A DNA stretch of 64,000 nucleotides. It comes from an uncultured Planctomycetia bacterium (GTDB lineage Bacteria > Omnitrophota > Gorgyraeia > 1-14-0-20-64-10). This document shows positions 2,462-50,895 of the stretch, one piece after another. The DNA lies in NCBI GenBank assembly GCA_964373805.1, contig CAYJWF010000004.1:1891-65890 (forward strand), read 5' to 3'. The translations under genes were made by a program, and so were the position numbers. How positions within the stretch are numbered: position 1 is the stretch's first letter; each line of letters opens with the position of its first letter. The notes under the pieces were generated by a model. That model was given only the letters and a program-made list of their open reading frames with translations. It ran no database searches and was not told the origin of the DNA.

Positions 2462-3157
2462 TCACTGTTTCTGGCGGTGCTCTTTGAGCTGCCCCTCGAT
2501 GGCGTCGATCTCGTGCTGGAGTTTCTCTAAGGCCTGGGCTAAGGGATCGGGGAGACTGGTGTGATCCAAGTTGATCCCTGGAAAACGCCGCCCCTCCTGT
2601 CGGACGATGCGGCCCGGGACCCCCACCACCACCGCGTTGGCCGGAACGTCCCGGATCACCACGGCGTTGGCCCCAATCTGGACATCATCAGAAATGGTGA
2701 TGTTGCCAAGCACCTTGGCCCCGGTTCCGATCACCACGTTGTTGCCGATGGTGGGGTGCCGCTTCCCCCGCTCTTTGCCGGTCCCACCGAGGGTTACCCC
2801 CTGGTAGATCGTGACGTTGTCCCTCAAGACCGCGGTCTCACCGACGACCACCCCCATGCCGTGGTCGATGAACAGGCCCTGGCCGATCTGGGCCCCCGGA
2901 TGAATCTCGATTCCGGTCAACCCGCGGCTGGTCTGGGAGATGAGCCGCGCCAAGAACTTTAAGCCCAACCGATGCAAGGCATGAGCGACCCGATGGGAAC
3001 CGATCGCCAACACACTGGGATAAAGGAAAAGGACCTCCCACTCCGATCGGGCCGCCGGGTCTCGCTCCAGGGCGGCTCGAATCTCCCTTTTTAACGAGAC
3101 TCGCATGAAAAGCAACCACCCGACCGCAAAAAATAAAATAACCGCTAGGATCGGCAT
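2462..3157 (-). CDS. cysE: serine O-acetyltransferase
   Basis: Left-handed beta-helix hexapeptide repeats, IHPGAQIG...; 231 aa. Confidence 0.85.
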   Translation of the reverse strand: MPILAVILFFAVGWLLFMRVSLKREIRAALERDPAARSEWEVLFLYPSVLAIGSHRVAHALHRLGLKFLARLISQTSRGLTGIEIHPGAQIGQGLFIDHGMGVVVGETAVLRDNVTIYQGVTLGGTGKERGKRHPTIGNNVVIGTGAKVLGNITISDDVQIGANAVVIRDVPANAVVVGVPGRIVRQEGRRFPGINLDHTSLPDPLAQALEKLQHEIDAIEGQLKEHRQKQ

Positions 3158-4329
3158 CCTTGAAGCAGGACGACCGCGTAGGCGGCCATCGCCTCTTTCG
3201 CACCAATGGGACCTAAACCTTCCATCGTCCGGACCTTCACGTTCACTTGGGATTCCTTAACCTTAAGAAGCCTCGCCACGGAGCTGCGAATCGCCTCTCG
3301 ATGGGGACCTAACCGTGGCTCCTCGGTGATGACCATGAGATCGGCGTTGGAAATTTCAAGTTTCCTGGCTCGAATCAGCCGAAGCGCCTTGGCGATGAAT
3401 CGCTGGCTCGGGGCCCCTTTCCATTTGGAATCGGTATCGGGAAAGTGGCTCCCTAAGTCCCCGGCCCCTGCCGCCCCCAGCATCGCGTCGCAGAGGGCGT
3501 GGAGGAGCACGTCCGCATCGGAGTGACCCAGGAGTCCCTTCTTCGCTGGAATCTTCCTTCCCCCTAAGACGAGCGGCCGGCCCGCGATCAACCGATGAAT
3601 ATCAAACCCAATGCCTACTCGCATATCAAAAGGGGTCTGACCCCTTTTGCCTTTCATCAAGGTTTCCGCCATCAAGAGATCATCCTGAGTGGTCACCTTC
3701 AAATTCCGGGGAGAACCTTCCACGATCCGTACCTTGACCCCCATCGCCTCCACCAAGGCTGCGTCATCCGTTGCGGTAACCCGCCTGATTCTTGCCCGAT
3801 GGTGAGCCGATTCCAACAGATCCCGACGAAACACTTGAGGGGTCTGGATCGCCCAGAGGTGGTTTCGATCCAAGGTTTTGGCCACCCATCCGGCCCTGAC
3901 CTGCTTGATCGTCGGAACCACTGGGATAGCCGCCACGGCCGCTTGCGTCCGTTGGGCGGTCCGGATCGTCTCCATAAGGAGCTCCGATGGGACGAGGGGA
4001 CGAGCCCCATCGTGAACCACCACCCACTCTGCCGATGGAGGAAGCGCCTGCAATCCTCGGAAGACTGAGGCGGTCCGAGAAGCGCCTCCCGGGATGATCT
4101 GAATCACCTTCCGATAGCGGTACTTCTGGACCATCCGTTGGACCGCCGCGACATCGTCCCGATGACTGACCACAACCATCCCATCGATCGGACGAGCCTG
4201 CTCCAAGGCGCTTAAGGTCCAAGACAGCATCGGCCGTCCAGCCAACCGGACGAACGGCTTTCGGACCTTCTTCTTAAAACGTCTGCCCTCTCCAGCAGCT
4301 GGGACAATAGCGACAACCCTAGGTGCCAG
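3145..4329 (-). CDS. ispDF: bifunctional 2-C-methyl-D-erythritol 4-phosphate cytidylyltransferase / 2-C-methyl-D-erythritol 2,4-cyclodiphosphate synthase (IspDF)
   Basis: Tracked ORF starts at a TTG (4245). The same frame upstream encodes the conserved IspD N-terminus VVAIVPAAGEGRRF, right up to an in-frame TAG at 4351-4353. The C-terminal half is IspF (GHSDADVLLHAL...). No ATG/GTG/TTG lies between the TAG and the motif; the start is placed at CTG 4327-4329 by inference. Confidence 0.8.
   Translation of the reverse strand: MAPRVVAIVPAAGEGRRFKKKVRKPFVRLAGRPMLSWTLSALEQARPIDGMVVVSHRDDVAAVQRMVQKYRYRKVIQIIPGGASRTASVFRGLQALPPSAEWVVVHDGARPLVPSELLMETIRTAQRTQAAVAAIPVVPTIKQVRAGWVAKTLDRNHLWAIQTPQVFRRDLLESAHHRARIRRVTATDDAALVEAMGVKVRIVEGSPRNLKVTTQDDLLMAETLMKGKRGQTPFDMRVGIGFDIHRLIAGRPLVLGGRKIPAKKGLLGHSDADVLLHALCDAMLGAAGAGDLGSHFPDTDSKWKGAPSQRFIAKALRLIRARKLEISNADLMVITEEPRLGPHREAIRSSVARLLKVKESQVNVKVRTMEGLGPIGAKEAMAAYAVVLLQGCRS
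3628..3650. repeat. P1 palindrome inside ispDF (IspD-IspF linker)
   Basis: AAAAGGGGTCTGACCCCTTTTGCC; encodes GKRGQTPF. Confidence 0.85.
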
Positions 4330-6915: not shown

Positions 6916-7812
6916 CTAAGGAAACACGAAGTAAAAGAACGCGGTGAAGAAACAGTCGGCGGCGATGATCAGGATAAAGGAAACCACCACCGAAAAGGTG
7001 GTCGAGCGGCCCACCCCCTCAGCGCCGCCCGACGTCTCGAAACCTTCGTAACAGGCAACCGTCGCGATGATCACGCCAAAGACGACCGCCTTGAGGAGCC
7101 CCGTGAACAGATCCTTAAACCTTAAGGCGTCCCACGTCATGTTCATGTAAAGGCTGGAACCAATCCCCAGCTTGTAGACCCCCACGACGTACCCCCCCAG
7201 GATCCCCACGAGGTCCGCGTAGAGCGTCAAGATCGGCAGCATCGTCACCAGGGCCAGAAGCCGTGGGACCGCCAGATACCGGACCGGATCGGTAGCCAAG
7301 GTTTGCAGAGCGTCGATCTGCTCGGTCACCCGCATGGTCCCTACCTCGGCCGAGATGGAGGCCCCCACCCGACCGGCGATGACGAGAGCCGTGAGCACCG
7401 GCCCTAACTCCCGCACCATGGAGAGGGCAACCAAGGCGCCGATGTACAGCTCCGCCGAGATCTTTTGGAGCTGATAAGCCGTCTGAAGGGCCAACACCAT
7501 CCCGGTAAAGAGGGAGGTGAGGAAAACCAGGGGGAAGCTGGCGACCCCGACCCGCTCCATCTGGAGGAGGATGAGTTCCCATGAACGATTCCGAGCCAAC
7601 CGCTTCCAACGCCACGGGAAGGGGAGATCGACGACCCAACTCCTCCAGGGCAGCGCCAGGATCCCTCCCACCGTCTGCCAGAGGAGGACCGCGGAGCCCC
7701 CCAGGTATTCGAAGAAGGCCAGCGACCCTTCCCCTAAGCCCCCCACCAAACGGCGGGTTACCGCTTCCGCGCCTTGGCCGCTAGAATTTCTTTCGATGTT
7801 CCACCCCGACAA
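6916..7812 (-). CDS. mlaE: ABC transporter permease MlaE
   Basis: MlaE/YrbE-type multi-TM permease pattern; position in the mla cluster. Confidence 0.75.
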   Translation of the reverse strand: MSGWNIERNSSGQGAEAVTRRLVGGLGEGSLAFFEYLGGSAVLLWQTVGGILALPWRSWVVDLPFPWRWKRLARNRSWELILLQMERVGVASFPLVFLTSLFTGMVLALQTAYQLQKISAELYIGALVALSMVRELGPVLTALVIAGRVGASISAEVGTMRVTEQIDALQTLATDPVRYLAVPRLLALVTMLPILTLYADLVGILGGYVVGVYKLGIGSSLYMNMTWDALRFKDLFTGLLKAVVFGVIIATVACYEGFETSGGAEGVGRSTTFSVVVSFILIIAADCFFTAFFYFVFP

Positions 7813-9295
7813 ACTCCTCGTCCCGATCCAACCGAACCTGGACCCTTTGCCCGGAAGAAGACAACGGATACGTCAGCTCCAGCTCCTCGCGCGTCACCGA
7901 TTCCGGTTGAACTTCACGATCCACCTCATAAGCGAGGCCCACCGCCATTCGGTCTTCCGCCGTGGAACGGCGCACGCTCAGGCCCGAAACCGAAGGTCTC
8001 TCGCCCGGCACCTCTACAGGCCGCGCGGGAGACTCCACCCCCAGGGGTCCCACGCGCCAGCCTCCCCCAACCCCTAAACTTCTTTCGGTCGAGGAAAGCC
8101 GCACGTTGGAAAGGAAGTCGCTGCGGCCCAACCGTCGAAGATCGACGGTCCCCTCGATGAGCAGCACGCCGCTTGGCTTGGTGATTTGAGAGTTCTGGAT
8201 CTTTAAGATCGGCCCTTCGCCTCTAAAACGCAGCGTCGCCAGGCGGAATCTCTCCCATCCCAAGGACCCTCCTTCGCTGGAAATCTGGCCTTGGCTTTCC
8301 AGTTGACTTAAGGGGCCGGTCAAGGTGACTCGACCATGAATCGGACCGGAAAGGGTCCATCGCTGAGGTCCAGCAAACCAACGGATCCATCTGTCTAAAT
8401 CGGCCCTTTTAAGCTCCAAGTTCAAGTCCACCGGATAGGGTGGCTTTAAACGAATCCGACCATTCAAAGAGGCCTCTTGCCCCAAAAGCTCCGCCTGCAG
8501 GTGAAGATCGGAACGCTCCACCACCCACCGGACCGTCAGCTGTTCAGGAATTTCTTCCTCCTGGCGCGCCCAGATGGTGATCCTTCCCCCGACCCCATGA
8601 GAAGAAACCTCTTTCTTAAGAACCCCTTCTACCCGCCAGGCTCCTTGGAGTTCGGCCTGTTTCAAGCGGATCGCCTCCCGCGAAAGGGACCATTGGCTGA
8701 CGAAATGACTCCTGGGAAAGTGAGCTCCTTCTTCTACGTTTCTGGCTGCGCCAGCGGCCAGTCTAGGAAAGTCCCGCGCCTCAGCGAGGGGCTCCATCCA
8801 TCCTAAAAGGATCGGCTCCTTAACCGTGCCGCTCAACTCCACCATTCCTTTAAAGAACGGATGCTCCAGGGTGAGCCAACCGTCCCACCCGAGCTGCGAT
8901 GAGTTTTCCTTGGCGTCCTGAGCGGTAAGATGCAAGCGGCCCTGCGCTTCAAGAGGGAGGCCGCCCACCGACAGGGATACCCGAGTCACCGTGATAGAGG
9001 TCACGATACCGTCGCGAAAGAACATCTGTGGATTCTCGAAAGCGCTTCGACTGAAGAGTCGCCAAAGCGATCCTTCCATCTGAAGACGTTCAATCGCCAA
9101 AAAGGAGGGTTTTACGGAAACTCCATAAAGGATCAGTTTCTTGGGAGAAAAGGCCAATCGCTGAATGGATACCGGCGCCTTGAAAAGTTGACTTAAACCT
9201 TGGCTCAACCGAACGCGCCCAACCTGAAGGGCCCAGAAGAATCCTCCAGCGCTCACAAGACTCACGCAGAGAAACGCCCCAAAAAACCGTCTCAA
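7781..9295 (-). CDS. membrane-anchored periplasmic protein, possibly AsmA-like; carries an in-frame repeat element
   Basis: N-terminal TM helix then a 480-aa soluble region; no firm family match; contains repeat R1 encoding [12 protein letters not shown]. Confidence 0.4.
   Translation of the reverse strand: MRRFFGAFLCVSLVSAGGFFWALQVGRVRLSQGLSQLFKAPVSIQRLAFSPKKLILYGVSVKPSFLAIERLQMEGSLWRLFSRSAFENPQMFFRDGIVTSITVTRVSLSVGGLPLEAQGRLHLTAQDAKENSSQLGWDGWLTLEHPFFKGMVELSGTVKEPILLGWMEPLAEARDFPRLAAGAARNVEEGAHFPRSHFVSQWSLSREAIRLKQAELQGAWRVEGVLKKEVSSHGVGGRITIWARQEEEIPEQLTVRWVVERSDLHLQAELLGQEASLNGRIRLKPPYPVDLNLELKRADLDRWIRWFAGPQRWTLSGPIHGRVTLTGPLSQLESQGQISSEGGSLGWERFRLATLRFRGEGPILKIQNSQITKPSGVLLIEGTVDLRRLGRSDFLSNVRLSSTERSLGVGGGWRVGPLGVESPARPVEVPGERPSVSGLSVRRSTAEDRMAVGLAYEVDREVQPESVTREELELTYPLSSSGQRVQVRLDRDEEFVGVEHRKKF
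8733..8800. repeat. R1 repeat element, copy in AsmA-like gene
   Basis: TCTACGTTTCTGGCTGCGCCAGCGGCCAGTCTAGGAAAGTCCCGCGCCTCAGCGAGGGG. Confidence 0.8.
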
Positions 9296-11769
9296 ATGTG
9301 ACGTTCCGCAGGAGTAGGCGCCGGATGGAAGACCAGTCGATCGTTCTCCACCTCGATCAAGAGCGCTGCCCCCTCCTTGTAGTGTCCCGCGATGATCTCT
9401 TGCGCTAGGGGATCCTCCAAGTGCCGGGCAATGGTCCGTTTCAAAGGTCGGGCCCCATAGATCGGATCAAATCCCTTATCGATCAAGAACTCTTTGGCCG
9501 CGGGCGACAACTCGATGGCGATGCCCTGTTCCCGAACCCGGGCCATGACCTCGGCCATCTCGATCTCTACAATCCGATGGAGATCCTGCCGGGTCAAGGA
9601 TCTAAAAACAATGGTCTCATCCACTCGGTTCAAGAACTCCGGCTTAAAGGTTTTCTTCATCTCCTCCAAGAGCTGACCCTTCATGTCTTGATACGTCACC
9701 TCCTCCTTGGGGGTCTTAAATCCCAAGGAGCCCTGCTTACGCAGCAGCTCCGCCCCCAGGTTGGAGGTCATGATCAAGACCGTGTTCTTGAAATCGACCT
9801 TCCGGCCAAAGCTGTCGGTGAGCCTGCCCTCCTCCAAGACCTGCAGGAGAAGATTGAAGACGTCCGGATGGGCCTTCTCCAATTCGTCCAGGAGGACCAC
9901 GGAGTAAGGGCGCCGACGGACCTTCTCGGTCAACTGCCCGCCCTCTTCGTATCCCACGTAGCCGGGTGGGGCTCCCACCAGTCTTGAGACGTTGAACTTC
10001 TCCATGTACTCCGACATGTCGACCTGGATCATCGCCTCCTCATTCCCAAAGAGAAACTCGGCCAGCGCCCGGGCCAACAAGGTTTTCCCCACGCCGGTGG
10101 GCCCTAAGAAGATGAAAGAGCCGATCGGCCGTCGAGGGTCTTTGAGGCCTGCGCGGGAACGGCGAATGGCGTTGGCGATCGCCTCGATCCCCTCCTGCTG
10201 GCCGACCACCCGCTTATGGATCTCCTCCTCCATCCGCAGGAGTTTCTGCGTTTCCTTCTCCTCCAAACGGGAGACGGGGATGCCGGTCCATTTGGAGACG
10301 ATCTGGGCGATGTCCTCCTCGGTGATCACCGGCTGCGCCTCGGCCTTGGAACGGGACCATTCCCGCTTCGCCCGCTCCATCTCGGCCCTGGCCTCCCGCT
10401 CCTGATCCCGCAGCGACGCCGCCTTCTCGAAGTCCTGTCCCTTGACCGATGCCTCCTTTTCCTTGCGCAAGGTTTCGATCCGTTCCTCAACCTCCTTCAA
10501 GTTGGGAGGGGCGGTCAACACCATCAGCCTCGCCCGGGATCCGGACTCGTCCATGAGATCAACCGCCTTATCGGGCAGGTACCGCCCCGAGATGTAGCGG
10601 TCGGACAGCTTGGCCGCCGCCTCGAGCGCGGCGTCCGAGTACTTCACCTTGTGGTGGGCCTCGTACTTGTCCCTTAACCCCTTCAAGATGGCGATCGTCT
10701 CCTCGACCGTTGGGGGATCCACCACGATCGTCTGGAATCTTCGTTCCAGGGCTGCGTCCTTCTCGATGTACTTGCGGTACTCATCCAACGTGGTCGCCCC
10801 GATGCATTGGATCTCCCCACGGGACAAGGCCGGCTTCAAGATGTTGGAGGCGTCGATCGCCCCTTCCGCCCCACCGGCCCCCACCAAGGTATGCAGCTCA
10901 TCGATGAAGATGATCACATTCTCCGAGCGCCGGATCTCATCCATCACCGCCTTGATCCGCTCCTCGAACTGCCCTCGGTACTTGGTACCGGCCACCATCA
11001 AGGCCAGGTCCAGGATGACCACCCTTTTATCCTTCAAGATCTCCGGAACATCGCTCCGAATGACCTTTTGGGCCAAGCCCTCCACAATGGCGGTCTTTCC
11101 CACGCCGGCCTCCCCCAACAGAACCGGGTTGTTCTTGGTTCGACGGGAGAGAATCTGGATCACCCGTTCGATCTCGTTCTTGCGGCCGATCACCGGATCC
11201 AGTTTGTTTTCTCGGGCCAACTGGGTAAGATCCCGGCCAAAGGCGTCCAGGGCTGGCGTCTTGGTCTTGGCCGGAGCCGGCCCCATCGCGCTGTAGCCGG
11301 GAGCGGTCGATCCCAACAGCTCCATGACCTCCTGCCGGACCTTCCCGAGATCGAGCCCTAAGTTCACCAATACCTGGGCGGCGATTCCCTCCCCTTCCCG
11401 GATGAGGCCCAAAAGGAGGTGTTCGGTTCCGATGTAGTTGTGCCCTAAGTTCCGGGCCTCGTCCATCGCCAGCTCAATCACCTTCTTCGCCTTCGGGGTG
11501 AAGGGAATGTCGCCGGAGACAATGGTGGAAGGCCCCAGCTGCACCAGCTTCTCCACCTCCAATCGGATCTGGTCGGAGCTTAACCCTAAATTTTGCAGGA
11601 CCGCAGCCGCGACCCCTTCCCCCTCTCGGATGAGGCCCAGCAGGATATGCTCCGTCCCAATGTAATCATGATTAAACCGTTTGGCCTCTTCCTTGGCCAA
11701 AAGGATCACCTTCCGCGCCCGCTCGGTAAACCGATTAAACATATTCATCCCGTTACACCTCCTTTCCAC
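9292..11769 (-). CDS. clpC: ATP-dependent Clp protease ATP-binding subunit ClpC
   Basis: Two N-terminal Clp repeats, two AAA+ modules ([16 protein letters not shown]), UVR-like linker; 825 aa. Confidence 0.9.
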
Positions 11770-11893
11770 CCATTTCTAAGAGCTCGATTCCTTCCTTAAT
11801 CGTCAGGACAGCAACCCCATTACTCCAACGTGTCATTCCACCTATAAGGATATCATACCAGAAAAATTGGTTTTAGGGATCGTGGGATGAGGC

Positions 11894-13057
11894 TTAGAGC
11901 GGCTTCGCCAAAGACTTCCAGCTCAGGACGCGGACGAACCCCCTTGTCTGCTCTTCATCTCCTGCGTGAATCAGGAAAGCCGATCTTGTTGTCCGTTTCG
12001 TGAGCCTCCCCCAATAGAAGAGATTCTTCAGAGAGTCAGGGGTGACGGTTTTCCCCGATTGGATCTCCACGGGGATCTCTCTGGATCCTTCTTGAAGGAT
12101 CAGGTCAACCTCATGGCCAGCCTTGTCTCTCCAGAAATACAGGTGAGGGGTTCGCCCTTGGTGCAGCCGGTGTTTGAGTATCTCGCAGACGACGAAGGTT
12201 TCAAAAAGGGCGCCGCGGAGCGGATGGCTTTTCAGGTGAGAAAGATTTTCAATGCCCAATAGGGAGCACGCCAGGCCGGTATCGGTCAGATACAGCTTTG
12301 GGCTCTTGACGATCTGCTTCTTGAAGTTTTGATGGAAGGGAGGAAGCAGGTAAGCCAGAAAGCTGGCCTCCAGGACGCCCAGCCACGCCCTGGCCGTGTT
12401 GTGCGTGATGCCACAGTCGTTGGCCAGATTGCTCAGGTTGAGGATACACCCCGTTCGGCCGGCGCAGAGCTGGAGGAACCGGTGAAAACTGGGGAGGTCG
12501 TGGACGTTCTTGATCTGCCGGACATCCCGCTCCAGATAGGTGCGGATGTAATCCGGGTACCAGTCGGCAGGCCGCAGCCGCTTGTCGTAGATTCTGGGAT
12601 ACAACCCCTGCAACAGGAGTTCTTCCGCAGAGGGCAGTCTCTTTAAAGTGGGAAGGAGCTCTGAGAGTGAGAATGGCATCAACGTCAGGATCCGCACGCG
12701 CCCGGCAAGGGTCTGAGACAGCTTCTCTAGAAGAAGGAAGTTTTGAGAGCCGGTCAGGATAAATAAGCCTTCCCCCTTATGCGTGTCCACGTGGGTCTGA
12801 AGATAAGAAAACAGCTCCGGGGCCCGCTGCGCCTCATCGAGGATGGCGCCTCCCCCGTATTCCTTGAGGAATCCGCGGGGATCCTGGGTAGCGTACGCCA
12901 ACGTATCCCGGTTTTCCAGAGAGACGTAGGCCTTTTGGGGGAACAGGTTTCGGGCCAGTGTGGTTTTCCCGGATTGCCTCGGTCCCAGGATGGCCACCAC
13001 CGGAAACTTTCTGGCCATCTCCACAATCTTCTTCTGCAAGGTCCTGACGACCATCAC
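11894..13057 (-). CDS. AAA+ ATPase of the COG1373/DUF4143 family
   Basis: Walker A GPRQSGKTTL, Walker B ILDEAQ, C-terminal DUF4143-like region. Confidence 0.7.
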   Translation of the reverse strand: MMVVRTLQKKIVEMARKFPVVAILGPRQSGKTTLARNLFPQKAYVSLENRDTLAYATQDPRGFLKEYGGGAILDEAQRAPELFSYLQTHVDTHKGEGLFILTGSQNFLLLEKLSQTLAGRVRILTLMPFSLSELLPTLKRLPSAEELLLQGLYPRIYDKRLRPADWYPDYIRTYLERDVRQIKNVHDLPSFHRFLQLCAGRTGCILNLSNLANDCGITHNTARAWLGVLEASFLAYLLPPFHQNFKKQIVKSPKLYLTDTGLACSLLGIENLSHLKSHPLRGALFETFVVCEILKHRLHQGRTPHLYFWRDKAGHEVDLILQEGSREIPVEIQSGKTVTPDSLKNLFYWGRLTKRTTRSAFLIHAGDEEQTRGFVRVLSWKSLAKPL

Positions 13058-13165
13058 AGGGCCAGGCTACCAGGATATGGATAAATTGTCAATACGATTT
13101 ACAATATATCCATTTTTGTCCGGCGCACCCGTCTCCAGACTTACGCCTGGGACCCTAGACCTTTG

Positions 13166-13216
13166 CGACCCCCCCCCTGATTCGTTTTGCTTCGCAAACC
13201 GAATCAAAACGGTGGG
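13166..13216. repeat. R2 hairpin repeat copy A (C-run / G-run clamped)
   Basis: CCCCCCCCCTGATTCGTTTTGCTTCGCAAACCGAATCAAAACGGTGGGGG; 41-nt core identical to copy B. Confidence 0.8.
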
Positions 13217-13271
13217 GGTGTGCCTTTTCGGGAAGGGTTACAGTCTTAAGTTTACCTGAGGGGCATGCGAG

Positions 13272-13320
13272 AAATGGCGAAAATCTTTTGGCTAACTGTT
13301 CATCACGCCCTAACCGAGGC
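13272..13320. repeat. direct repeat X1 (pairs with X2 at 13972-14020)
   Basis: AAAATCTTTTGGCTAACTGTTCATCACGCCCTAACCGAGG versus AAAATCCATGGCTAACTCTTCATTACGCCCTAACCGAAAAGG. Confidence 0.6.
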
Positions 13321-14264: not shown

Positions 14265-15257
14265 TTACGCCTGGGACCCTATGCCGAGGGACTGCTCCAA
14301 GCCTGCCGCAAGGATCGAGACCAAGTCCGGCGAAACTCCGAAACCCTTCAAGATCGCATCCATCGAGAACAGCTCCTGCGCGAAGTAAAGACGTAGAACA
14401 TCCGCCGCGACCCGAACCGGATAAACATGTTCCAGCGGACCCAAATAAGTAACTCGGGAAAGACCATGGATTTTCTGGAAGGCGGTTGTTACCGCATCCG
14501 GGGATCGCTCCGGAACGTAATGAATCCGCCGATTCTCACCGACAAGTCCTTCGGCCAACTCCGATTCCCCCAGCAGAACCAGCCGCCCGGCAAACCGATC
14601 CAGCCTCCGGAGAACCTGGACCAAATCAGCATCTAACGTAGCGGCATCCAGAACAACCGCCTGAATCCCCTCGACGCTTGCCTCCGCCATCGCAACCGCC
14701 ATCGCAATCCCCCGATCCCCTTCCTCTACGTTTCTGGCTGCGTTAGCGGCCAGTCCAGGAAAGTGCCGCGCATCAGCGCGGCCTTCCTCCAGCCCAGAGG
14801 GATTACTTTCTCCCGTGGTACCTGGTTTCGCCTCCCGCTCTGACCCTGAGAAATTTCTTAACAATCGAGGAAGGAATCCCATCACCTTACCAGGAATAGC
14901 CCCCTCCCCACCCCGCCAGCGGGAGATCGTCTCCCGACTCACCGGCTTCCCGCCGTTGTACCCTGCACCTGCCAGCGCCTGAGCCATCCCTTCCTGCGTC
15001 AACCCCAGCCAATCCATCACCTGGCCAAACTCTGTATCACCAGCGACTTCCGAATCCGCTGCATCCTCCTCCAGCCCGGCGAAGGCAGCGGAGGAGCCTC
15101 TGGACCCCCCTGGAAAAGCCGCCTCCAGCTCAGAGCTGGCGGCACTTTCCAGGCCAGCCTGGGCACGCAGCGCAAGGGCAACGGAAGGCCGAACAAGCGT
15201 TAGAGCCAAGAAAAGCCCCAACGAGCTTCGCCAACGGTCCATTCGTTCTCTTCTCAT
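14265..15257 (-). CDS. secreted hypothetical protein of the GLEE-motif family, with embedded repeat and an HTH-like segment
   Basis: Signal-peptide-like N-terminus; several (A/S)GLE(E/Q) motifs; C-terminal ...ILAAGLEQSLGIGSQA; segment GLTQEGMAQALAGAGYNGGKPVSRETISRW resembles an HTH; carries repeat R1. Confidence 0.45.
   Translation of the reverse strand: MRRERMDRWRSSLGLFLALTLVRPSVALALRAQAGLESAASSELEAAFPGGSRGSSAAFAGLEEDAADSEVAGDTEFGQVMDWLGLTQEGMAQALAGAGYNGGKPVSRETISRWRGGEGAIPGKVMGFLPRLLRNFSGSEREAKPGTTGESNPSGLEEGRADARHFPGLAANAARNVEEGDRGIAMAVAMAEASVEGIQAVVLDAATLDADLVQVLRRLDRFAGRLVLLGESELAEGLVGENRRIHYVPERSPDAVTTAFQKIHGLSRVTYLGPLEHVYPVRVAADVLRLYFAQELFSMDAILKGFGVSPDLVSILAAGLEQSLGIGSQA
14712..14800. 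repeat. R1 repeat element, longest copy, in GLEE-family gene
   Basis: CTCTACGTTTCTGGCTGCGTTAGCGGCCAGTCCAGGAAAGTGCCGCGCATCAGCGCGGCCTTCCTCCAG; includes hairpin CCGCGC-ATCA-GCGCGG. Confidence 0.8.
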
Positions 15258-15409: not shown

Positions 15410-16117
15410 ATGCCTTTCATCTTGTTGGTCATTTTTGGTCTGGCCGGTTGCGCCACAAAGGCTGGTCCAGCCCCCACTGCGGGATTCGTGGCGGCGGCTC
15501 GGCTTACCCAACCGACGGGCCTTCCCTTTCACAAGGCCTGGCAGAAACCGGAATTCGACTGGGGTCAGTACGGAACCATTTCGGTCAGCCCCGTCAACAT
15601 CGATTACCTTCCCCAGATGGACTGGTGGAAAAAGTTGGAACGGGGTCAAGGCTTTCAAGCCGATGCCAAGAAGCTGGCCGAATACACGCGTCAGACCTTT
15701 GAAGAGGCGTTCCGCGAAGATCCGAACCAACGCTTTCAGGTAGTCGATGCGCCTCAAACCGATACCCTGATTCTGGAGATCGCCCTGGTGGAGATCGTCC
15801 CCAGCAAGATCATGTTAAACACCTTAGGCTACGCCCCCTTTGTCGGCAGCGCCTTTAAGCTGATCCGAAACACCAAGTCCAAAAGCTCCGTGGCCTTCGA
15901 GGCCCGGTTCCGAGACGCCCAAACCGGCGAGGTCGTGGCCCAATTCGCCGACCGGGAGTTCGAGAAGATGTCGCCGGTGAATGTCAAGGATGTCACCTGG
16001 TACGGCCATGCCGAGAGCATCCTCTGCGAATGGGCCGACCAGTTCGTCCGGATGGTGAACCGAAAAGAAGGGGAACAGATCCCCGACTCCAAACCGTTCC
16101 ACCTGAAGCCCTGGTAA
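15410..16117 (+). CDS. lipoprotein, DUF3313-like
   Basis: Lipobox LAGCAT after a short signal peptide; 235 aa; one of very few plus-strand genes in the first 35 kb. Confidence 0.5.
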   Translation: MPFILLVIFGLAGCATKAGPAPTAGFVAAARLTQPTGLPFHKAWQKPEFDWGQYGTISVSPVNIDYLPQMDWWKKLERGQGFQADAKKLAEYTRQTFEEAFREDPNQRFQVVDAPQTDTLILEIALVEIVPSKIMLNTLGYAPFVGSAFKLIRNTKSKSSVAFEARFRDAQTGEVVAQFADREFEKMSPVNVKDVTWYGHAESILCEWADQFVRMVNRKEGEQIPDSKPFHLKPW

Positions 16118-16132
16118 GCAGGTTGTTTGCCC

Positions 16133-17359: not shown

Positions 17360-17974
17360 TCATCTTTTAGGTCCCTTGCCTTTCACCCTAGATTCTTCAC
17401 CCTTCACTGCCTTTGCCTTTTCCTCCACGGCTCGAACCCGATCCCGAAGACGGGCCGCCTCCTCAAAGGCCTCCGCGGCGACCGCCTTCTTGAGGTTCTC
17501 CTTAAGCCGCGCCAGATCTGTCTCTTCCCCTATGCTTTTAGCGGCATCAGCAGCCCGTCCAGAAAAGTGCCGCGCATCAGCGCGGCCTTCACTTTTCTTG
17601 GCCGCCTTCGGCTGCGAAACGGAAGGACCCTTTCCCACATGTTGGGTGGAACCGTGGATCCGCTTTAACAGGGGAACCAGGTACGGCTCAAACGTCTCGT
17701 AACAGTTCCCGCAGCCAAGCCGACCAACCTTGCGAAACCCTTCGTAAGTCATTCCACACCTGGGGCAGGAAAGCTTGGTTCGCTCGGTCGACTCTCCTTT
17801 AAGCCCGAAGTCGGCGAGGCCGGCCAAAAGGCCTGCTAACCCGAACTCCTGCCCTGCCGCAGTTCCTTTCTCGTGCGCGCAGCTCTCGCAGAGATGGAGC
17901 TCGCGGGTCTGGTCGTCAATGATCTCGGTCAGATGAACCGTCGCCTCGTTTTGTCCACACAGGTCACAGGTCAC
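17360..17974 (-). CDS. mcsA: McsA, activator of protein arginine kinase (zinc-finger / UVR domain)
   Basis: CxxC pairs (CDLCG...CESC; CPRCG...CGNC) and a C-terminal UVR motif (AVAAEAFEEAARLRDRV); carries a partial R1 repeat. Confidence 0.75.
   Translation of the reverse strand: MTCDLCGQNEATVHLTEIIDDQTRELHLCESCAHEKGTAAGQEFGLAGLLAGLADFGLKGESTERTKLSCPRCGMTYEGFRKVGRLGCGNCYETFEPYLVPLLKRIHGSTQHVGKGPSVSQPKAAKKSEGRADARHFSGRAADAAKSIGEETDLARLKENLKKAVAAEAFEEAARLRDRVRAVEEKAKAVKGEESRVKGKGPKR
17533..17600. repeat. R1 repeat element, partial copy (3' half), in mcsA
   Basis: ...CCAGAAAAGTGCCGCGCATCAGCGCGGCCTTCAC; the 33-nt core is identical to the 14712 copy. Confidence 0.75.
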
Positions 17975-25618: not shown

Positions 25619-28606
25619 TCATGCACCATGACATCGTTTGTATTTCCTGCCACTGCCGCAGTAACAGGGATCGTTCCTTCCCACCTTGGGATGTTCCCGT
25701 CGAAATGGGTGGGAGCTCTCCCGCGCTTCGGCCATCGGACCGGCTCCCACTCCCGGAACAAACGGTTCGTCGGTCCCTTCACGAAACGATTCGGGGTTTA
25801 TCAACGAAGGCGTCGGAGTCGCCGCCTTCGGGGCTTCTGGATGAAGGAACTGTGTCGGCTCCAAAACCCGAGGCCTCGTCTCGGTCCGAACCGCTTGGAT
25901 CTTGAAGATAAGCTCCACGATCTCTTGTCGGACCGATTCCACCATCCGGGTGAACATCTGGTACGCCTCGTGCTGATACTCGACCAACGGATCCTGCTGG
26001 CCGTAGACCCGATAGCCGATCCCTTCCCGCAGGTGGTCCATGGCGTAGAGATGATCCTTCCACTTGGTGTCGATGACCTGAAGCATTACCCACTGCTCCA
26101 GCCGCCGCATCGACCCTTCCCCCAATACCGATTCTCGGGCCTCGTAGGCCTGATGGGCGGCGGTGAGGAGGCTCTGCGCCAGATCTTCTCTTCCTATACG
26201 TTTCTGGCTGCGCCAGCGGCCAGTCGAGGAAAGTCCCGCATCAGCGGGGCTCCCCAACTTCGCGAAGTCGGGGATCGCCACCGAAAACCGGCCTTGGATC
26301 GCCTCGGACAATCCGGAGAGATTCCACTCCTCCGGATCTTGATGAGACAGCGCATAAAGATCCAACAATCCCTGGATCGATTCCTCCACCATCTCGAGGA
26401 TCTTAGGCTTCAACTCTTTACCCTCCAAGACCGCCCGTCGCTCCCGGTAGATCACCTCCCGCTGGCGGTTCATCACGTTGTCGTACTCCAAGAGACGTTT
26501 CCGAATCTCGAAGTTGTGCGTCTCCACCCTCTTCTGGGCCGTCTCGATCGCCCTGGAGAGCCACGGGTGTTCGATCGCCTCCCCTTCGGGGATGGCCGCC
26601 TTGGTCCACTCGAGAAGTCGGTTCTCTCCGAAGATGCGGATCAAGTCGTCGTCCAGGGAAAGGTAGAATCGGCTAGAGCCAGGATCCCCTTGTCGGCCGG
26701 AGCGCCCGCGAAGCTGGTTATCGATCCGGCGGGACTCGTGCCGCTCGGTGCCGAGGACGTGCAGACCCTTCAAGCCTACCACCTGGGCATGTTCCGCCTC
26801 CACTTGGGTCTGCACCTTCGGTTCGATCTCCTTCAAAAGCTCGGCCTCGACTTCCTGTGAAAATTCAGGGACCATCTCCGCCGGAGGCGGGCCCTGCGCT
26901 TGCCCGCCCTCATTTTGGCGGGGGGACCCTCCCTGAGCGAGCTGGTCCTTTCGGCGTTTCAGCTCCGCGGCGATGAGGAATTGGGGATTCCCTCCCAAAA
27001 GGATATCGGTCCCCCGCCCCGCCATGTTGGTGGCGATGGTCACCGCCTTGAATCGCCCGGCCTGAGCGACGATCTGGGCCTCCTGCTCGTGGTATCGGGC
27101 GTTGAGGACGTGGTGCGGGATCTGGCGGCGTTTCAGAAGCTCGCTTAACCGTTCCGACTTCTCAATGGAAACGGTGCCCACCAGGACCGGCCGGCCTTCC
27201 CCGTGCAGCTGGGTGATCTCCTCTTCGATGGCTTGGAACTTTTCCCGTTCGGTCTTGTAGACCACATCCGCGTAGTTGGTTCGAATCAAAGTCCGGTTGG
27301 GGGGGACGGTGACCACCTCCAGACGATAGATCTGGTGGAACTCGGCCGCTTCGGTGGAGGCGGTGCCGGTCATCCCTGCCAGCTTATCGTACATGCGAAA
27401 GTAATTCTGGAAGGTGACCGTGGCCAAGGTCTGGTTTTCCCGTTCGATCCGAACCCCCTCCTTGGCCTCGATCGCCTGATGGAGCCCGTCCGACCAGCGA
27501 CGACCCGGCATGAGCCGGCCGGTAAATTCGTCGACGATCACCACCTGGCCGTCCTTGACCATGTAGTCGACGTCCCGCCGGTATAAGGTGTGGGCCCGGA
27601 GGGCCTGGTTGATGTGATGAACGAGGGTGATGTTGGTGTCCTCGTAGAGGTTGCCCACCTGGAGAAGCCCCTCGGCCTTCTTGACACCCTCCTCGGTTAA
27701 GATCGCCGAGTGGGCCTTCTCATCCACGGAGTAGTCCGCGCCCTTCGCCAGTTTCGGAACGATCCGATCGATCTTGAAATAAAGCTCGGTCGACTCCTCA
27801 GCCGGCCCGGAGATGATGAGGGGCGTTCTCGCCTCATCGATCAAGATCGAGTCGACCTCATCCACGATGGAATACGACAATCCCCTCTGGACGCATTCCT
27901 CCACGGAAACCACCATGTTGTCCCGAAGATAATCAAAGCCGAACTCGTTGTTCGTCCCGTAGGTGACGTCGCATGCGTAAGCGGCCTTACGATCCGAGGC
28001 ACCCATCTCGTGTTGAATCGCCCCGACGGTTAACCCTAAGCTTTCGTAGATCGGTCCCATCCAGTTCCGATCCCGTTTGGCGAGGTAGTCGTTCACCGTC
28101 ACCAGATGGACTCCGCGCCCCAAGAGGCCGTTTAAAAAGACGGCCAGGGTGGCCACCAGGGTCTTGCCCTCACCGGTAGCCATCTCGGCAATCTTTCCCT
28201 GATGGAGAACCATTCCTCCGATCAGCTGCACGTCGAAATGGCGCATGTTCACCGTCCGACGGGCCGCCTCGCGAACCAAGGCGAAGGCCTCTGGGAGAAT
28301 CTCCTCCATCGCCCGATTCTCGATCTTTAAGCGACGCTTCCGTTCCCCCTTCAGTGCGTCTTCGTCGTTGGGATCGATGGAATCGCCCAGTGGGACGGTG
28401 CCATCGGAATCGATTCCGCCTCCGAGTTGTGCGATCCGGGCCTTCAGACGTTGACGCAACGCCTCGGCCTTTTCCTTTAATTGGGAATCGCTTACATCCT
28501 TCACCGTCGGCTCCAGGGCGCTGATCCTTGCCACAACAGGCATCAGCCGCTTCAAGAACCGCTCGTTCTGCGAGCCGACCAGTTTATTGAGGAACCAGTT
28601 CAACAT
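25619..28606 (-). CDS. secA: preprotein translocase ATPase SecA
   Basis: DEAD-like motor motifs and C-terminal zinc-binding [14 protein letters not shown]; 995 aa; carries an in-frame R1 repeat in a variable C-terminal region. Confidence 0.95.
26196..26265. repeat. R1 repeat element (RPE-like), copy in secA
   Basis: CTATACGTTTCTGGCTGCGCCAGCGGCCAGTCGAGGAAAGTCCCGCATCAGCGGGG...; same element at 8733-8800, 14712-14800 and partially at 17533-17600. Confidence 0.8.
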
Positions 28607-30463: not shown

Positions 30464-31810
30464 CTACGGCGCGCCATCGAGAACCAGCCTATTCCTCTGA
30501 GCCTCCTCCAGCCCCGCCGCCAGATCCGGCCCCTCCAATCCGGCCCGATCCATAAGGGGCTGCCGTAAGCTCGACTTCCAGCCCTCCTCCAGCCCGGCGG
30601 TGGTGCGCCACTCTTCGATCAACGGTCGAAACAACTCGTAGGAGATCGTGGGGAGATACATGGTAAACGCTCCGAAGGCTAACCCTTCCAAAGGCTGCTC
30701 CTCCGGGTTTTTCCGCGGGGGCCCTGCCTGTCTCCTTGGAAGTTTTCCCCCAAGGCACTGTCCCAAAAAGTAGAGGGCCAAATCCTCTTGAGTCGGAATC
30801 TTCCCTGCCGGCAAAGAGGTCCGACACGACTCGGCCAAATCTCTTAGTTGGGACTCAAAATGTTCGACGTAGCATCGCACAGCCTTCACAAGGATGCTGT
30901 TTCTAGGCTTCCTACCGAGAGAATCGAGCGCACTGGCAACGTGCCCAATAATTCTACGCGGCGAGTCTGTCCTTGATGCGTAAGCCGGATACGCCACTGC
31001 TAGGAGCGGAACATAGTCTTGCCAGGACAAGCCAGCCGGTTTTCTTCGATCATTCAAGAGCGTCCGGAAGACACTCACCACGGTCAACCTTTCAGGCGCA
31101 GGAGGGACATACTTCTGAAGGACCTCTAAACTCACCGGTTCACCGCTCACTTTATAGAAACGGGTCAGGGCATTGGCGGCGTAGGAGAAAGGAAGCCATT
31201 CCCCAGAAGTCAAAGAAACTCCGTTCTCATCCACCAGACGGCCCGCGTCCCTTAACAATCTCATCCGGTACCCAAGGGAATAGGGGGTAGGATTGTTAAG
31301 GAAATAGCGCAGAGCCTCGTGCGGTGTCGCAAAGGTCAATCCCTGTCGTAGCTCCGGAAGGTCAGGAGGCATCCCCCTTCTCCAAAGAATGAAAATCTTC
31401 TTTCCAGGAGGGGTCATGGCCTGCCGACGGGCGTTTTCTTGGTCGACCAGCTCTGGGAGGCGGTGCTTCCAGAGGGTCTCTTGGCTTACGTTAATGGATC
31501 TAGCAAACTCCCTCCGTTTCAGTTGATCTCCTGGGTGCTTCTGAACTCCCTCGATGATCCGTTGATGGGTGCGCTGCCATCGGGGGCCATGGGGTTTTCC
31601 ATCCTCTGCATCCGAATCGGACCCCAGGGCCTCCTCGAGGCCGGCCAGGTCCGGCCGCTGGCGCAGGAAAAACAGGGACGGTTCTTCAAAACACCTTTTG
31701 GTATAGGCGGTTGGGCCGGCACCGCCCCCATGGCCACAGACAGCCTGCGAGCAGGTCAATAGGGTGAGCGTCAACGTCCAAATGAACCGGCGCATGGCGT
31801 GTGAGATCAA
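30464..31810 (-). CDS. secreted hypothetical protein of the GLEE-motif family
   Basis: Signal peptide; AGLEE motifs; C-terminal ...AGLEGPDLAAGLEEAQRNRLVLDGAP; internal HTH-like stretch REFARSINVSQETLWKH. Confidence 0.45.
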   Translation of the reverse strand: MISHAMRRFIWTLTLTLLTCSQAVCGHGGGAGPTAYTKRCFEEPSLFFLRQRPDLAGLEEALGSDSDAEDGKPHGPRWQRTHQRIIEGVQKHPGDQLKRREFARSINVSQETLWKHRLPELVDQENARRQAMTPPGKKIFILWRRGMPPDLPELRQGLTFATPHEALRYFLNNPTPYSLGYRMRLLRDAGRLVDENGVSLTSGEWLPFSYAANALTRFYKVSGEPVSLEVLQKYVPPAPERLTVVSVFRTLLNDRRKPAGLSWQDYVPLLAVAYPAYASRTDSPRRIIGHVASALDSLGRKPRNSILVKAVRCYVEHFESQLRDLAESCRTSLPAGKIPTQEDLALYFLGQCLGGKLPRRQAGPPRKNPEEQPLEGLAFGAFTMYLPTISYELFRPLIEEWRTTAGLEEGWKSSLRQPLMDRAGLEGPDLAAGLEEAQRNRLVLDGAP

Positions 31811-32451: not shown

Positions 32452-32955
32452 TTAAATAAAACCTTCTTCTTTGAGGAGGCGGCGCTTGGCGGCGAGGCCC
32501 CCTTTGGCGGAGTACCCCCCTAAGGTCCCATCACTGGCGATCCCGCTTCGCGGGATTCTCCTTAAACGGTGCACCTTTCGGTGCACGAAAAACTTAGAGG
32601 AAACGACCCGGTGGCAGGGGATCTGAGGCGCCCAGCGGTTTCGTTTCAAGGCCTGCCCCACCGCCCGAGCCGCTTTCGGCTGGCCGATCTGTCTGGCCAC
32701 CCAGGCATAAGTTCGCACCTGCCCCTTGGGAATCTTCAGGATCGCCTCGTATACCTTCCGTTGAAACGGGGTACACTTCTTCCACCACTCCTGCCGATCG
32801 ATCCCATCTCGAATGGGGTCGAAGGGTCGAATCACTACAAGGGGCAGATCCCCACGGGTGATCATCATCGGCTGCCTGTGTCTTGCCACTTCATCCATTA
32901 CCCTATCGAAGTTCCTCTCAGTGAACCTTTCTGATATCTTCTTCACTTTTATCAC
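32452..32955 (-). CDS. ogt: methylated-DNA-protein-cysteine methyltransferase (MGMT/Ogt-like), with a 23-aa insertion in the active-site loop
   Basis: Conserved MGMT C-domain (TPFQRKVYEAI...TYAWVA...PCHRVV ... DGTLGGY). PCHRVV and DGTLGGY are separated by 23 extra residues encoded by two GAA(A)-loop hairpins in the DNA. Confidence 0.7.
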   Translation of the reverse strand: MIKVKKISERFTERNFDRVMDEVARHRQPMMITRGDLPLVVIRPFDPIRDGIDRQEWWKKCTPFQRKVYEAILKIPKGQVRTYAWVARQIGQPKAARAVGQALKRNRWAPQIPCHRVVSSKFFVHRKVHRLRRIPRSGIASDGTLGGYSAKGGLAAKRRLLKEEGFI

Positions 32956-45521: not shown

Positions 45522-46826
45522 GTGCCTATTCGCAGAGACCTGCTGGATCGGATCGGTCCCTTCCTTAAACGGAAGGAGTTTTTGGCGATCGTGGGCCCCC
45601 GGCAGGCGGGGAAGACGATCTTTCTGGAGCTGTTGGGAGCGTATCTGAACGAAAATTTACACGTCCCAAAGGAGCGAATCCAGAACATCACGTTTGAGGA
45701 CCGCCGGCTGCTGGCCGAATTTGAGCGGGACCCTGTTCCCTTCATCCAATCGTATCTGCCGACTAAGGTTCCCCCATCCTTCACCTTGATGATCGATGAG
45801 TTTCAATACGCCCGGGAAGGCGGACAGAAGTTGAAGCTGATCTACGATACGGTTCCCGGGATCAAGGTGATCGTAACCGGGTCCTCCTCCTTGGAGCTCA
45901 AGGCTCAAGTCGGAAGGTATATGGTCGGAAGGATCTTGAACTTCAACCTCTGGCCTTTTCATTTCGGCGAGATTTTAAGAGCCCGTTCTCCCCGGTTGGA
46001 GAGGGTTTACGACCAACGGAATGAATCCCTTCTGCGATGGCTTAAAGAGGGAAAGCCGGTCCCCATGACGCCTGGTCCGGATGGATTCCGTGAGGAGATG
46101 AGGCCCCTCTTTGAAGAGTACTGCATCTGGGGCGGCTATCCGGCGGTGGTCTTGAGCGAAGGACAGGAGGAACGAAAGAAGGTCCTGGCGGAGATTTACA
46201 ACAACTACATTCTCAAGGACATCAAGACCCTGTTGGAATTGGCCACGGAAGAGAAGCTGTACCGGCTGGCTCAAGTATTGGCTACCCAGATCGGGGATCT
46301 CGTGGTTTACCAACATCTCAGTCAGGCATCCGACCTGGATTACCGGAATTTAAAGAAGCATCTGACCATCCTCACGCAGACCTTTATCACCCAGCAGCTC
46401 CGTCCCTTCTTTAAGAACCGACAGAAGGAGCTGGTCAAAAATCCAAAGATCTTTTTCCTGGACCTGGGATTTCGCAATACCTTGACGGAGAACATGAACC
46501 GGTTGACGACGCGGCCAGATGCCGGGGCGATGGTAGAGAACGCGGTGTGGATCCGGCTTCATGGGCTGTTTGAGGGAACGGAGAAGATCAATTTCTGGAG
46601 AACCAAGGCCGGTGCGGAGGTCGATTTCGTTCTTCATCTTGCCGACCGCCTCCTCCCCATGGAAGTAAAATACAGCCCCTCGGCTGGGGAAAAACTCCCC
46701 AGGGGCTTGGCCAGTTTTATCGAACAGTTTCATCCCCCCGCCGCCTTGGTCCTGACGAAAGATTCCTGGGGCCGGATGAAACGGGGCAAGACCTCCATCC
46801 TGTTCGCCCCGGTCTACTATCTTTAG
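45522..46826 (+). CDS. AAA+ ATPase of the COG1373/DUF4143 family (second copy)
   Basis: Walker A GPRQAGKT, DEFQ Walker B, C-terminal DUF4143-like region; preceded by TTGACA...TATAAT-like promoter and a GGAGGTGA Shine-Dalgarno. Confidence 0.7.
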   Translation: MPIRRDLLDRIGPFLKRKEFLAIVGPRQAGKTIFLELLGAYLNENLHVPKERIQNITFEDRRLLAEFERDPVPFIQSYLPTKVPPSFTLMIDEFQYAREGGQKLKLIYDTVPGIKVIVTGSSSLELKAQVGRYMVGRILNFNLWPFHFGEILRARSPRLERVYDQRNESLLRWLKEGKPVPMTPGPDGFREEMRPLFEEYCIWGGYPAVVLSEGQEERKKVLAEIYNNYILKDIKTLLELATEEKLYRLAQVLATQIGDLVVYQHLSQASDLDYRNLKKHLTILTQTFITQQLRPFFKNRQKELVKNPKIFFLDLGFRNTLTENMNRLTTRPDAGAMVENAVWIRLHGLFEGTEKINFWRTKAGAEVDFVLHLADRLLPMEVKYSPSAGEKLPRGLASFIEQFHPPAALVLTKDSWGRMKRGKTSILFAPVYYL

Positions 46827-50008: not shown

Positions 50009-50029
50009 AACAATTTCCATTCAAATACT

Positions 50030-50113
50030 TGGGGATGTGCTGGAATTGGCAGACAGGGGAGTCTCAAAAACTCCTGGGCGCAAGCCCGTGGGGGTTCAAG
50101 TCCCTCCATCCCC
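50030..50113 (+). tRNA. tRNA-Leu (anticodon CAA), type II with long variable arm
   Basis: Acceptor GGGGATG/CATCCCC, D-arm CTG-GAATTGGCAGA-CAG, anticodon stem GGAGT/ACTCC with loop CTCAAAA, variable arm TGGGCGCAAGCCCGT, T-loop TTCAAGT; coordinates +/-1. Confidence 0.7.
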
Positions 50114-50151
50114 ACTCAAATTTCTCCATCCCTCATTTGGGAGGGCTCTTG

Positions 50152-50895
50152 GTGCCTAAGCCACGGCTTCCTGACAAAGACTTTCCTTGGACACCTGAAC
50201 TGGCTTACGCGATTGGTCTTCTTACGACAGATGGCAATCTATCAAAGGATGGACGACACATCACCCTAAGATCGTCCGATCTACAACTTTTGGAGACATT
50301 CAGACGTTGCCTTAATCTGACGCGAAGCGGCCCGATCGTCCTGACAAAACGGACGGGGTGGGCTAAGAAGCCAAGCTTTAGGGTTCAATTCAGCAACGTT
50401 CAGTTCTATCGATGGCTCACGAAAATCGGTTTGCATCCTGCGAAAACGTATACCTTGGGTGAGCTGCGTGTTCCCGACGCGTATTTTCCAAACTTTCTGA
50501 GAGGCCACCTGGATGGGGATGGTTCCATTACAGTATCCAGGGACACCTATAACACTTTTAAACATCCCAAATATGTGTACACAAGACTCTACGTGAGCTT
50601 TCTATCGGCAAGTAGACAACACGTGGATTGGATTCAATCGAAGATCTCCGTATTGCTCGGCATTCAGGGTCATAGAAGCCACTACTCTCGAAAAGGCAAC
50701 GGTCGCCACGCTACCATGTGGAAGCTCCGATGTGCTAAGAAAGACTCTTTGAAGCTGCTGGCACGGTTATACCATCGGCAGGACATCCCCTGCTTGGAAC
50801 GCAAAAGAGAGATCGCGAAACAACGGCTTATCCCTTCCTGGGAGGAAGGAGACACAGACAGCGAGAGTTCTCAAAAAGTGCTAGGCCTGCCTTGA
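50152..50895 (+). CDS. LAGLIDADG homing endonuclease (double-motif), free-standing
   Basis: Two LAGLIDADG motifs (LAYAIGLLTTDGNL and LRGHLDGDGSITVS); likely GTG start after a GGGAGGG Shine-Dalgarno, ~40 nt after tRNA-Leu; the tracked ORF extends upstream over the tRNA and that part is rejected. Confidence 0.7.
   Translation: MPKPRLPDKDFPWTPELAYAIGLLTTDGNLSKDGRHITLRSSDLQLLETFRRCLNLTRSGPIVLTKRTGWAKKPSFRVQFSNVQFYRWLTKIGLHPAKTYTLGELRVPDAYFPNFLRGHLDGDGSITVSRDTYNTFKHPKYVYTRLYVSFLSASRQHVDWIQSKISVLLGIQGHRSHYSRKGNGRHATMWKLRCAKKDSLKLLARLYHRQDIPCLERKREIAKQRLIPSWEEGDTDSESSQKVLGLP

Follow-up and report, generated by a model that had tools for sequence, protein, structure and literature searches.

A short hairpin-forming DNA repeat inserted in frame into unrelated genes, among them a putative envelope-protein gene, of an uncultured Omnitrophota bacterium

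The DNA analysed (hereafter the window) was a stretch of 64,000 nucleotides (nt) from an uncultured Omnitrophota bacterium (GTDB Gorgyraeia; 1-14-0-20-64-10), corresponding to positions 1,891-65,890 of the forward strand of contig CAYJWF010000004.1 (assembly GCA_964373805.1). A short repeat, here called R1, was located inside an open reading frame (ORF) lying between clpC and mlaE, referred to below as the host gene, and other copies were present elsewhere in the window (Table 1). A repeat scan delimited a family, D1, with four copies (8722-8789, the reference, on the + strand; 14714-14781; 17518-17585; and 26184-26251), after which nhmmer profiles and a covariance model of R1 were applied to the window. 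The top matches of the window SecA protein (71-77% identity in an alignment of close relatives) came from metagenome-assembled genomes (MAGs) labelled Candidatus Omnitrophica or Omnitrophota.

The host gene was directly downstream of clpC and, as the original prediction had stated, directly upstream of mlaE, and the order clpC-host-mlaE-mlaF-mlaD was kept in relatives. The same mlaEFD-PIN neighbourhood was found in L004, a contig from a Logan assembly which encodes the host orthologue P0002. The NCBI model of the gene covers 414 amino acids (aa) and starts at Met91; the upstream part, including the membrane helix, was conserved in the orthologues, supporting the TTG start at 9295, which overlaps the clpC stop. 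In an AlphaFold2 model (mean predicted local distance difference test, pLDDT, 64) a helix at residues 2-38 was followed by about 25 beta strands, and the insert encoded by R1 (residues 172-193, pLDDT below 50; 34-38 in the region of the insert peptide) lay between the strands 161-169 and 196-204. No significant Pfam or NCBIfam family, PDB sequence match or PDB-fold match was obtained for the protein. Five of 10 orthologues had a sub-threshold Pfam match to DUF748 (best E = 2e-4; 10-16 bits in the three scored individually, against a cut-off of 50) and two of ten had one to TamB (E = 0.02); both families belong to the AsmA-like clan. The predicted N-terminal membrane helix, the all-beta body and the conserved clpC-host-mlaEFD order make it reasonable to call the host an envelope protein; the more specific proposals of the original prediction were that it is periplasmic, which may be the case, and AsmA-like, which is possible on those sub-threshold matches and unproven.

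The host gene and its L004 counterpart were 91% identical in DNA sequence, and the 63-nt block 8733-8795 was the sole insertion or deletion in about 1.2 kb. The empty site in L004 read GGATGGAT^AGAAGGCAC, and the window read GGATGGAT, the 63 nt and then AGAAGGAGC, with a 3-nt ambiguity of the boundary if one substitution is allowed. No target-site duplication was seen at this copy by comparison with the L004 empty site; a duplication of GGAAGG was considered and ruled out, the left junction needing four changes despite flanks that are 94.5% identical. A search with the 504-aa host protein gave nine relatives: the 21 extra residues were present in the window protein and in an identical database twin, and missing from 8 of 8 orthologues, including P0002 (85% identity). 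This copy, the focal copy of the analysis, is a precise 63-nt insertion between clpC and mlaE which postdates the split from the L004 relative. The sole 63-nt indel with respect to L004, together with the absence of the insert from the seven more distant orthologues, shows that the event was recent, precise and in frame; the focal insertion is young.

The original prediction had placed R1 at 8733-8800. The copy was there, with the end drawn 5 nt too far, and the 22-residue peptide assigned to it was found in the translation of the ORF 7781..9295 (-). The claim of about 90% identity to the copy in secA over some 55 nt was a fair one: the two copies were identical at 54 of 63 positions (86%) over the whole element, with one 2-nt gap, and at 43 of 45 in the 3' part. 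Alignment of the R1 copies gave significant nucleotide identity. When the window was searched for the 45-nt core of this copy, allowing as many as 3 mismatches, the core itself and the secA copy (2 mismatches) were the sole matches; none was obtained in 100 dinucleotide shuffles. The four D1 copies were recovered by nhmmer with E = 1e-22 to 1e-24, a circular result as the first profile had been built from those same copies, and scored 70-88 bits with the covariance model.

Four copies had been reported in the original prediction; nhmmer and the covariance model raised this to five clear copies and one degenerate copy, all of them in intact ORFs whose downstream conserved motifs were also intact. 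The four D1 copies were all on the coding strand of minus-strand genes. The repeat had been correctly recognised in the envelope gene as a true dispersed DNA copy, but the antisense copy in an MGMT-like ORF and the change of frame in secA had been missed.

Table 1. Positions in the window of the R1 copies, the host ORF and mlaE. Bit scores are from the covariance model.
Feature	Position	Strand	Description
mlaE	6916..7812		Directly downstream of the host; Pfam MlaE E = 9e-83
Host ORF	7781..9295	-	504 aa from TTG start; N-terminal membrane helix and all-beta body; between clpC and mlaE
R1, focal copy	8733..8795	-	63-nt in-frame insertion, 21 aa, host residues about 168-188; 78.6 bits
R1 in 330-aa ORF (14265..15257)	14725..14787	-	After conserved GLEE linker motif; flanking direct repeat GAGGAAGG
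R1, degenerate, in the same 330-aa ORF (low confidence)	15104..15190 (approx.)	+	Inverted repeat I10, 33 nt, 76%; 17.7 bits, E = 0.02 window-wide
R1 in McsA-like ORF (17360..17974)	17529..17591	-	Linker before UVR motif (Pfam UVR); 70.5 bits
R1 in SecA (25619..28606)	26195..26255	-	Wing/scaffold region; 88.1 bits
R1, subfamily B, antisense to MGMT-like ORF 32452..32955 (-)	32539..32601	+	nhmmer E = 3e-8; 60.1 bits

The other copies in the window also coincided with extra residues in the encoded proteins. In three homologues of the 330-aa protein (P0131, P0135 and P0141) the sequence AGLEE directly joins an (I/V)A..IA.AE segment, without the 21 residues found in the window. The C-terminal domain of the 330-aa protein was also found in proteins of very different lengths, some of which, with the domain at their ends, reach 1,693 aa. 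The degenerate copy in this ORF, about 320 nt from the clear one and in opposite orientation, was not detected by nhmmer. The McsA-like protein was 22-24 aa longer at the insert than three orthologues. The SecA insert gave a length-variable loop its longest version among 27 relatives and aligned as a gap against the solved Thermus thermophilus SecA sequence. The subfamily-B copy added SSKFFVHRKVHRLRRIPRSGI to the MGMT/Ogt-like protein, right behind its PCHRVV active-site motif; with respect to the 79%-identical orthologue in L008 it was an insert of exactly 63 nt (21 aa) with no target-site duplication at the L008 empty site, and the orthologues in L010 and L011 were also without it. The comparisons of the focal copy with L004 and of this copy with L008 were the two exact empty-site comparisons.

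The sequence GGNCTGGAGGARG, which encodes (A)GLEE, was enriched in the window (7 matches against 0.9 expected: 14783, 15065, 30502, 30583, 43059, 44097 (-)) and marked linker points in the 330-aa ORF and in a 448-aa ORF (30464..31810). The closest SecA relative (P0011, from L009) carried a private 22-aa insertion, ELSPPDKELGQSPLGRILEGAR, at another site (alignment A6, columns 692-714), possibly a different in-frame element.

Related R1 copies were found at different sites in four independent assemblies (L001, L005, L006 and L012). The L001 copy, in a MAG labelled Planctomycetales, was non-coding and preceded the start of a gene; that of L006 overlapped the last codons at the 3' end of a PIN-domain gene. 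In L005 (GCA_964595335.1) the orthologue of the host gene (8808..10178) had its own R1 copy at 9547-9614 (+), at a different position in the gene and encoding GAEAPQTRDISGSAADAARN. L012, a groundwater Omnitrophota contig, carried two tandem shortened units which had lost hairpin 2 of the element (3079-3166, (-)) in its MGMT orthologue (2891..3262), with a right junction identical to that of the window MGMT-like copy (GAGGAA|ACGAC). The shared MGMT site may reflect either one old insertion or repeated targeting of the same site; the SecA identities among relatives (71-77%) are star-like and fit common descent as well as independent insertion. The pattern GCGGSACTTTYCTNGACNGGCYGCT gave two loci in public genome contigs, of which L001 was a true copy; L002, and the single metagenome match L003, were rejected as chance coding matches in a PucR-like regulator (LRGTFLDRLLLG). 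Neither subfamily pattern matched viral contigs, and blastn gave no match in plasmids. A profile of the duplicated peptide, used to search for other host proteins in 5.8 billion sequences, gave no match at E <= 10, the insert peptide being too short for significance.

The three window copies other than those in secA and the MGMT-like ORF, excluding the degenerate one, shared one reading frame with the L005 copy and encoded similar peptides (..ARHFPGLAANAARNVEEG..), as would be expected of a short peptide motif or linker spread among proteins by selection. The secA copy, however, was 61 nt long against the 63 nt of the other sense copies. This 2-nt deficit was on the 3' side of hairpin 1; as a result the frame changed within the element and the remainder of the same DNA was read in another frame, with the ORF still open. 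The MGMT copies were antisense and encoded an unrelated basic peptide, the L001 copy was non-coding and the L006 copy was at a gene end. In addition, the insert peptide of the host fell in the low-confidence region of the model cited above. From the secA frame shift, the antisense, the non-coding and the gene-end copies it follows that the conserved, repeated unit is the DNA; a module at the protein level is excluded as the repeated unit, and selection for a peptide is a very improbable origin of R1.

Two of the three sense frames of R1 contain TGA or TAG, and all window copies were open in the frame used. These data also bear on whether the segment is translated at all. A structured, GC-rich mobile element within a coding sequence might be removed from the mRNA or bypassed by the ribosome, in the manner of phage T4 gene 60 or of the yeast mitochondrial byp elements. 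Yet both inserts with an exact empty site were 63 nt long, a multiple of three, and the shortening by 2 nt in secA was compensated so that the ORF stayed open; skipping would not require any of this. ORF integrity, the 3n length and the placement in a loop argue for translation by read-through and against bypass or RNA excision, which we consider scarcely credible.

The anatomy of R1 was deduced from an alignment of eight copies, which was also submitted to RNAalifold. The element was about 61-63 nt long and formed two hairpins. A GGAAGG-like motif on the 5' side was followed by hairpin 1. In five copies, which came from four assemblies, this hairpin was CCCGC-N4-GCGGG; two window copies had a 7-bp version of it, and that of the focal copy spanned 7 positions and was mismatched. 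A conserved single-stranded segment, GGGACTTTCCTGGA, separated hairpin 1 from hairpin 2, CTGGCCGC-TGGC-GCAGCCAG, after which came a conserved single-stranded tail, GAAAC(G/T)TAGAGGAAG. Subfamily B (window 32539 and L006) had, in the place of hairpin 2, a hairpin of unrelated sequence, GTGCAC(C)...(G)GTGCAC (GTGCACC-TTTC-GGTGCAC in the window copy), a compensatory replacement. RNAalifold paired the internal CTTTCC with the 3' GGAAG in 5-8 of the 8 copies at each of the six pairs; in some copies CTTTCC can instead pair with the 5' GGAAGG. No terminal inverted repeats were found in R1, the ends being direct (GGAAGG...GGAAG).

For most copies the fold on either strand was more stable than that of dinucleotide shuffles (z = -2 to -5). 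Hairpins that survive the complete replacement of a stem in subfamily B, significant folding energies, G·T pairs in some stems and an MGMT insertion apparently retained across lineages with 72%-identical MGMT proteins could indicate that R1 is kept for a function of its hairpins, such as mRNA stabilisation, translational pausing or protein binding, and is thus exapted and not neutral selfish DNA. This is unlikely: copies occurred in both orientations with respect to transcription, the host genes had nothing in common, the close relative L004 was without the focal copy and the L012 units were without hairpin 2. No Rfam family reached its gathering threshold, and the surroundings of the two copies compared with Rfam at E <= 10 had no meaningful match.

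The explanation that best accommodates these observations, and which we hold to be very probably correct, is that R1 is a selfish and non-autonomous DNA repeat, belonging to an Omnitrophota lineage, that has entered unrelated genes in frame. The focal copy would do no harm and would persist for that reason: it comprises a whole number of codons, no stop interrupts the frame used, and it is predicted to occupy a loop between two beta strands. Ribosomes would read through the insert, adding 21 mostly small or charged residues, as the open ORF suggests, and the same may hold for the copies in SecA, McsA, the MGMT-like enzyme and the 330-aa protein. That R1 is tolerated in envelope as well as cytoplasmic proteins had been put forward in the original prediction; the intact ORF, the conserved downstream sequence and the location in a low-confidence loop fit this idea, and tolerance itself, though presumed, is well supported by them. 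Movement might involve hairpins formed in single-stranded DNA and an enzyme acting in trans from another locus, for which an HUH/Y1 transposase (IS200/IS605 or RAYT type) is a candidate; at the insertion site the internal CTTTCC might pair with a sequence resembling GGAAG.

Several results weigh against this explanation. Among the 27 ORFs scanned with Pfam, about half of those in the window, there was no transposase or other mobilising gene, including Y1. We infer translation of the insert from the integrity of the ORF. The GGAAG-like flank was present in the L004 empty site (AGAAGG) and missing from the L008 empty site. The orientation of the copies (4:1, or 4:2 with the degenerate copy) is inseparable from the near-uniform gene orientation in the window, and is further confounded by the negative GC skew of the window. 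Finally, the sense strand of the focal copy folded no better than shuffles (z = 0.18), whereas the antisense strand did (z = -2.98).

R1 was then compared with known families. Rickettsia palindromic elements (RPEs) are palindromic selfish DNA found in frame in housekeeping genes, according to the summary of Ogata et al. 2000, 2002 given in PMC10969869. As described there, RPEs resemble R1 in being dispersed, palindromic and in frame in unrelated genes, with intact ORFs, orthologues without the insert and sites compatible with the protein fold, and no transposase is known for either. In the same account RPEs are about 100-150 nt long and belong to Rickettsia, whereas R1 has 63 nt and belongs to Omnitrophota (free-living or episymbiotic); R1 is also used in two sense frames and in antisense. 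R1 is dispersed in multiple copies, forms hairpins, and lies in frame in intact unrelated genes whose orthologues are without it, as in the RPE-like class; it is an analogue and not a member of RPE-1 to RPE-10, by its size and host phylum, and with an apparently unrelated sequence.

Intragenic repetitive extragenic palindromic (REP) elements tagged with GTAG or CGTC, including those of Opitutus terrae (Planctomycetes-Verrucomicrobia-Chlamydiae group, PVC) and RPE-4/RPE-6, encode inserts of 20-30 residues, often in replication or repair genes, and are thought to occupy linkers or loops (PMC3733652). They share with R1 short stem-loops, often paired, with stems of 5-8 bp and loops of 3-5 nt (PMC3733652). 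The tag is adjacent to the stem at the canonical end of a REP, whereas in R1 4 nt separate GTAG from the 3' side of hairpin 2, both being on one strand. The complement of R1 reads CTAC-GTTT-stem, with CGTT in place of CGTC, a 1-nt spacer and a stem starting C-T, in contrast to CGTC-stem, A/T first pairs and a CCA tail in REPs; the two hairpins of R1 also differ from each other, so that R1 is not a dimer of one REP. The position and orientation of the tag (stem-AAAC-GTAG on the sense strand) ruled out a canonical GTAG/CGTC-REP (PMC3733652). Classical miniature inverted-repeat transposable elements (Correia, ERIC, Nezha) are likewise small, non-autonomous and dispersed, and can lie inside ORFs; this class was discarded as R1 had no terminal inverted repeats and no target-site duplication at the two empty-site comparisons. 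No description of R1 was found in Rfam or in the literature searched, and R1 is best filed as a new family of an already known phenomenon, that of RPEs and intragenic REPs.

A more specific mechanism, nested in the selfish-repeat explanation, takes R1 to be REP/RAYT-like or to be a mini-element that arose from IS200/IS605-type transposon ends. R1 would then travel as single-stranded DNA under the action of an HUH tyrosine transposase, with the internal CTTTCC/GGAAAG as guide, pairing with GGAAG/CTTCC at the site of cleavage or the target. Two subterminal hairpins without terminal inverted repeats or target-site duplication are features of such end-derived mini-elements, together with a possible fixed flank motif: a CTTCC/GGAAG-like motif abutted the same end of R1 in 7 of the 8 copies, and it was present in the L004 empty site. 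The order guide-like GGAAAG, hairpin, CCTTCC on the antisense strand would resemble the right end of that class, on the basis of the architecture of IS608. The pairing given by RNAalifold and the orientation ratio point in the same direction, and a TnpB-like fragment (Cas12f1-like_TNB; L008 19689..20033 (-)) in a related Omnitrophota MAG indicates that the family is present in the clade. On the other hand, no cognate TnpA or other Y1 transposase was among the scanned window ORFs, the target motif was inconsistent across the two empty sites, being missing from that of L008, the guide/target relation expected at the left end of IS608-type elements was not evident, a canonical GTAG-REP would carry its GTAG on the other side of the hairpin (PMC3733652), and the orientation bias is confounded as stated above. 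An origin of this type is a tentative possibility.

It is more doubtful that R1 represents an undescribed, Omnitrophota-specific class of site-selective, hairpin-guided mini-transposon, with CTTTCC pairing with GGAAG-type sequence (Glu/Gly codons, the AGLEE linker). If so, hairpin-guided targeting would steer R1 preferentially into coding DNA, giving new loop or linker sequence, and the identical site after PCHRVV of the MGMT-like enzyme may have been hit, or kept, in two lineages.

Other features of the window were recorded. An accessory block of about 4.4 kb (about 11800-16200) separated clpC from mcsB, which are adjacent in L005-L007 and L010; besides small ORFs and the 330-aa ORF, it encoded an AAA_14/DUF4143 ATPase (11894..13057) and a DUF3313 protein (15410..16117). 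Another AAA_14/DUF4143 gene was located at 45522..46826. A family of 46-nt perfect palindromes (CCCC..GATTCGTTTTGCTTCGCAAACCGAATC..GGGG) was found at 13172-13217, 14138-14183, 40623-40668 and 60109-60154, two of the copies lying inside the accessory block and being 98% identical. Short intergenic palindromes, GGGGTCAGACCCC and GGTACCAGGTACC / GGTGCCAGGCACC (D4, D5 and D7; at 2123, 3622, 17982, 23682, 33392, 47790 and 63801), may be terminator-like or REP-like; a c-di-GMP-I riboswitch match (63753-63865 (+), 36.6 bits against a gathering threshold of 35) overlapped a GGTGCCAGGCACC palindrome. A LAGLIDADG_3 ORF (50029..50895 (+)) started within or next to tRNA-Leu(CAA) (50031-50115), just after tRNA-Ala(GGC).

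Most documented selfish repeats that are in frame and putatively protein-coding come from Rickettsia and a small number of REP-rich genomes, and R1 extends the phenomenon to Omnitrophota, with an unusually clean empty site: a single gap, of 63 nt, in a gene that is otherwise 91% identical. The focal copy in the putative envelope protein is itself of modest interest; the antisense copy at the active site of an enzyme and the insert at the same site in L012 are more intriguing. R1 inserts make the encoded proteins longer, can lead gene calling and alignment astray in MAGs, and are usable as markers at the strain or lineage level. With 63 nt, two hairpins and neither terminal inverted repeats nor target-site duplication, R1 offers a compact system for the movement of such elements and for the absorption of random 21-residue loops by proteins.

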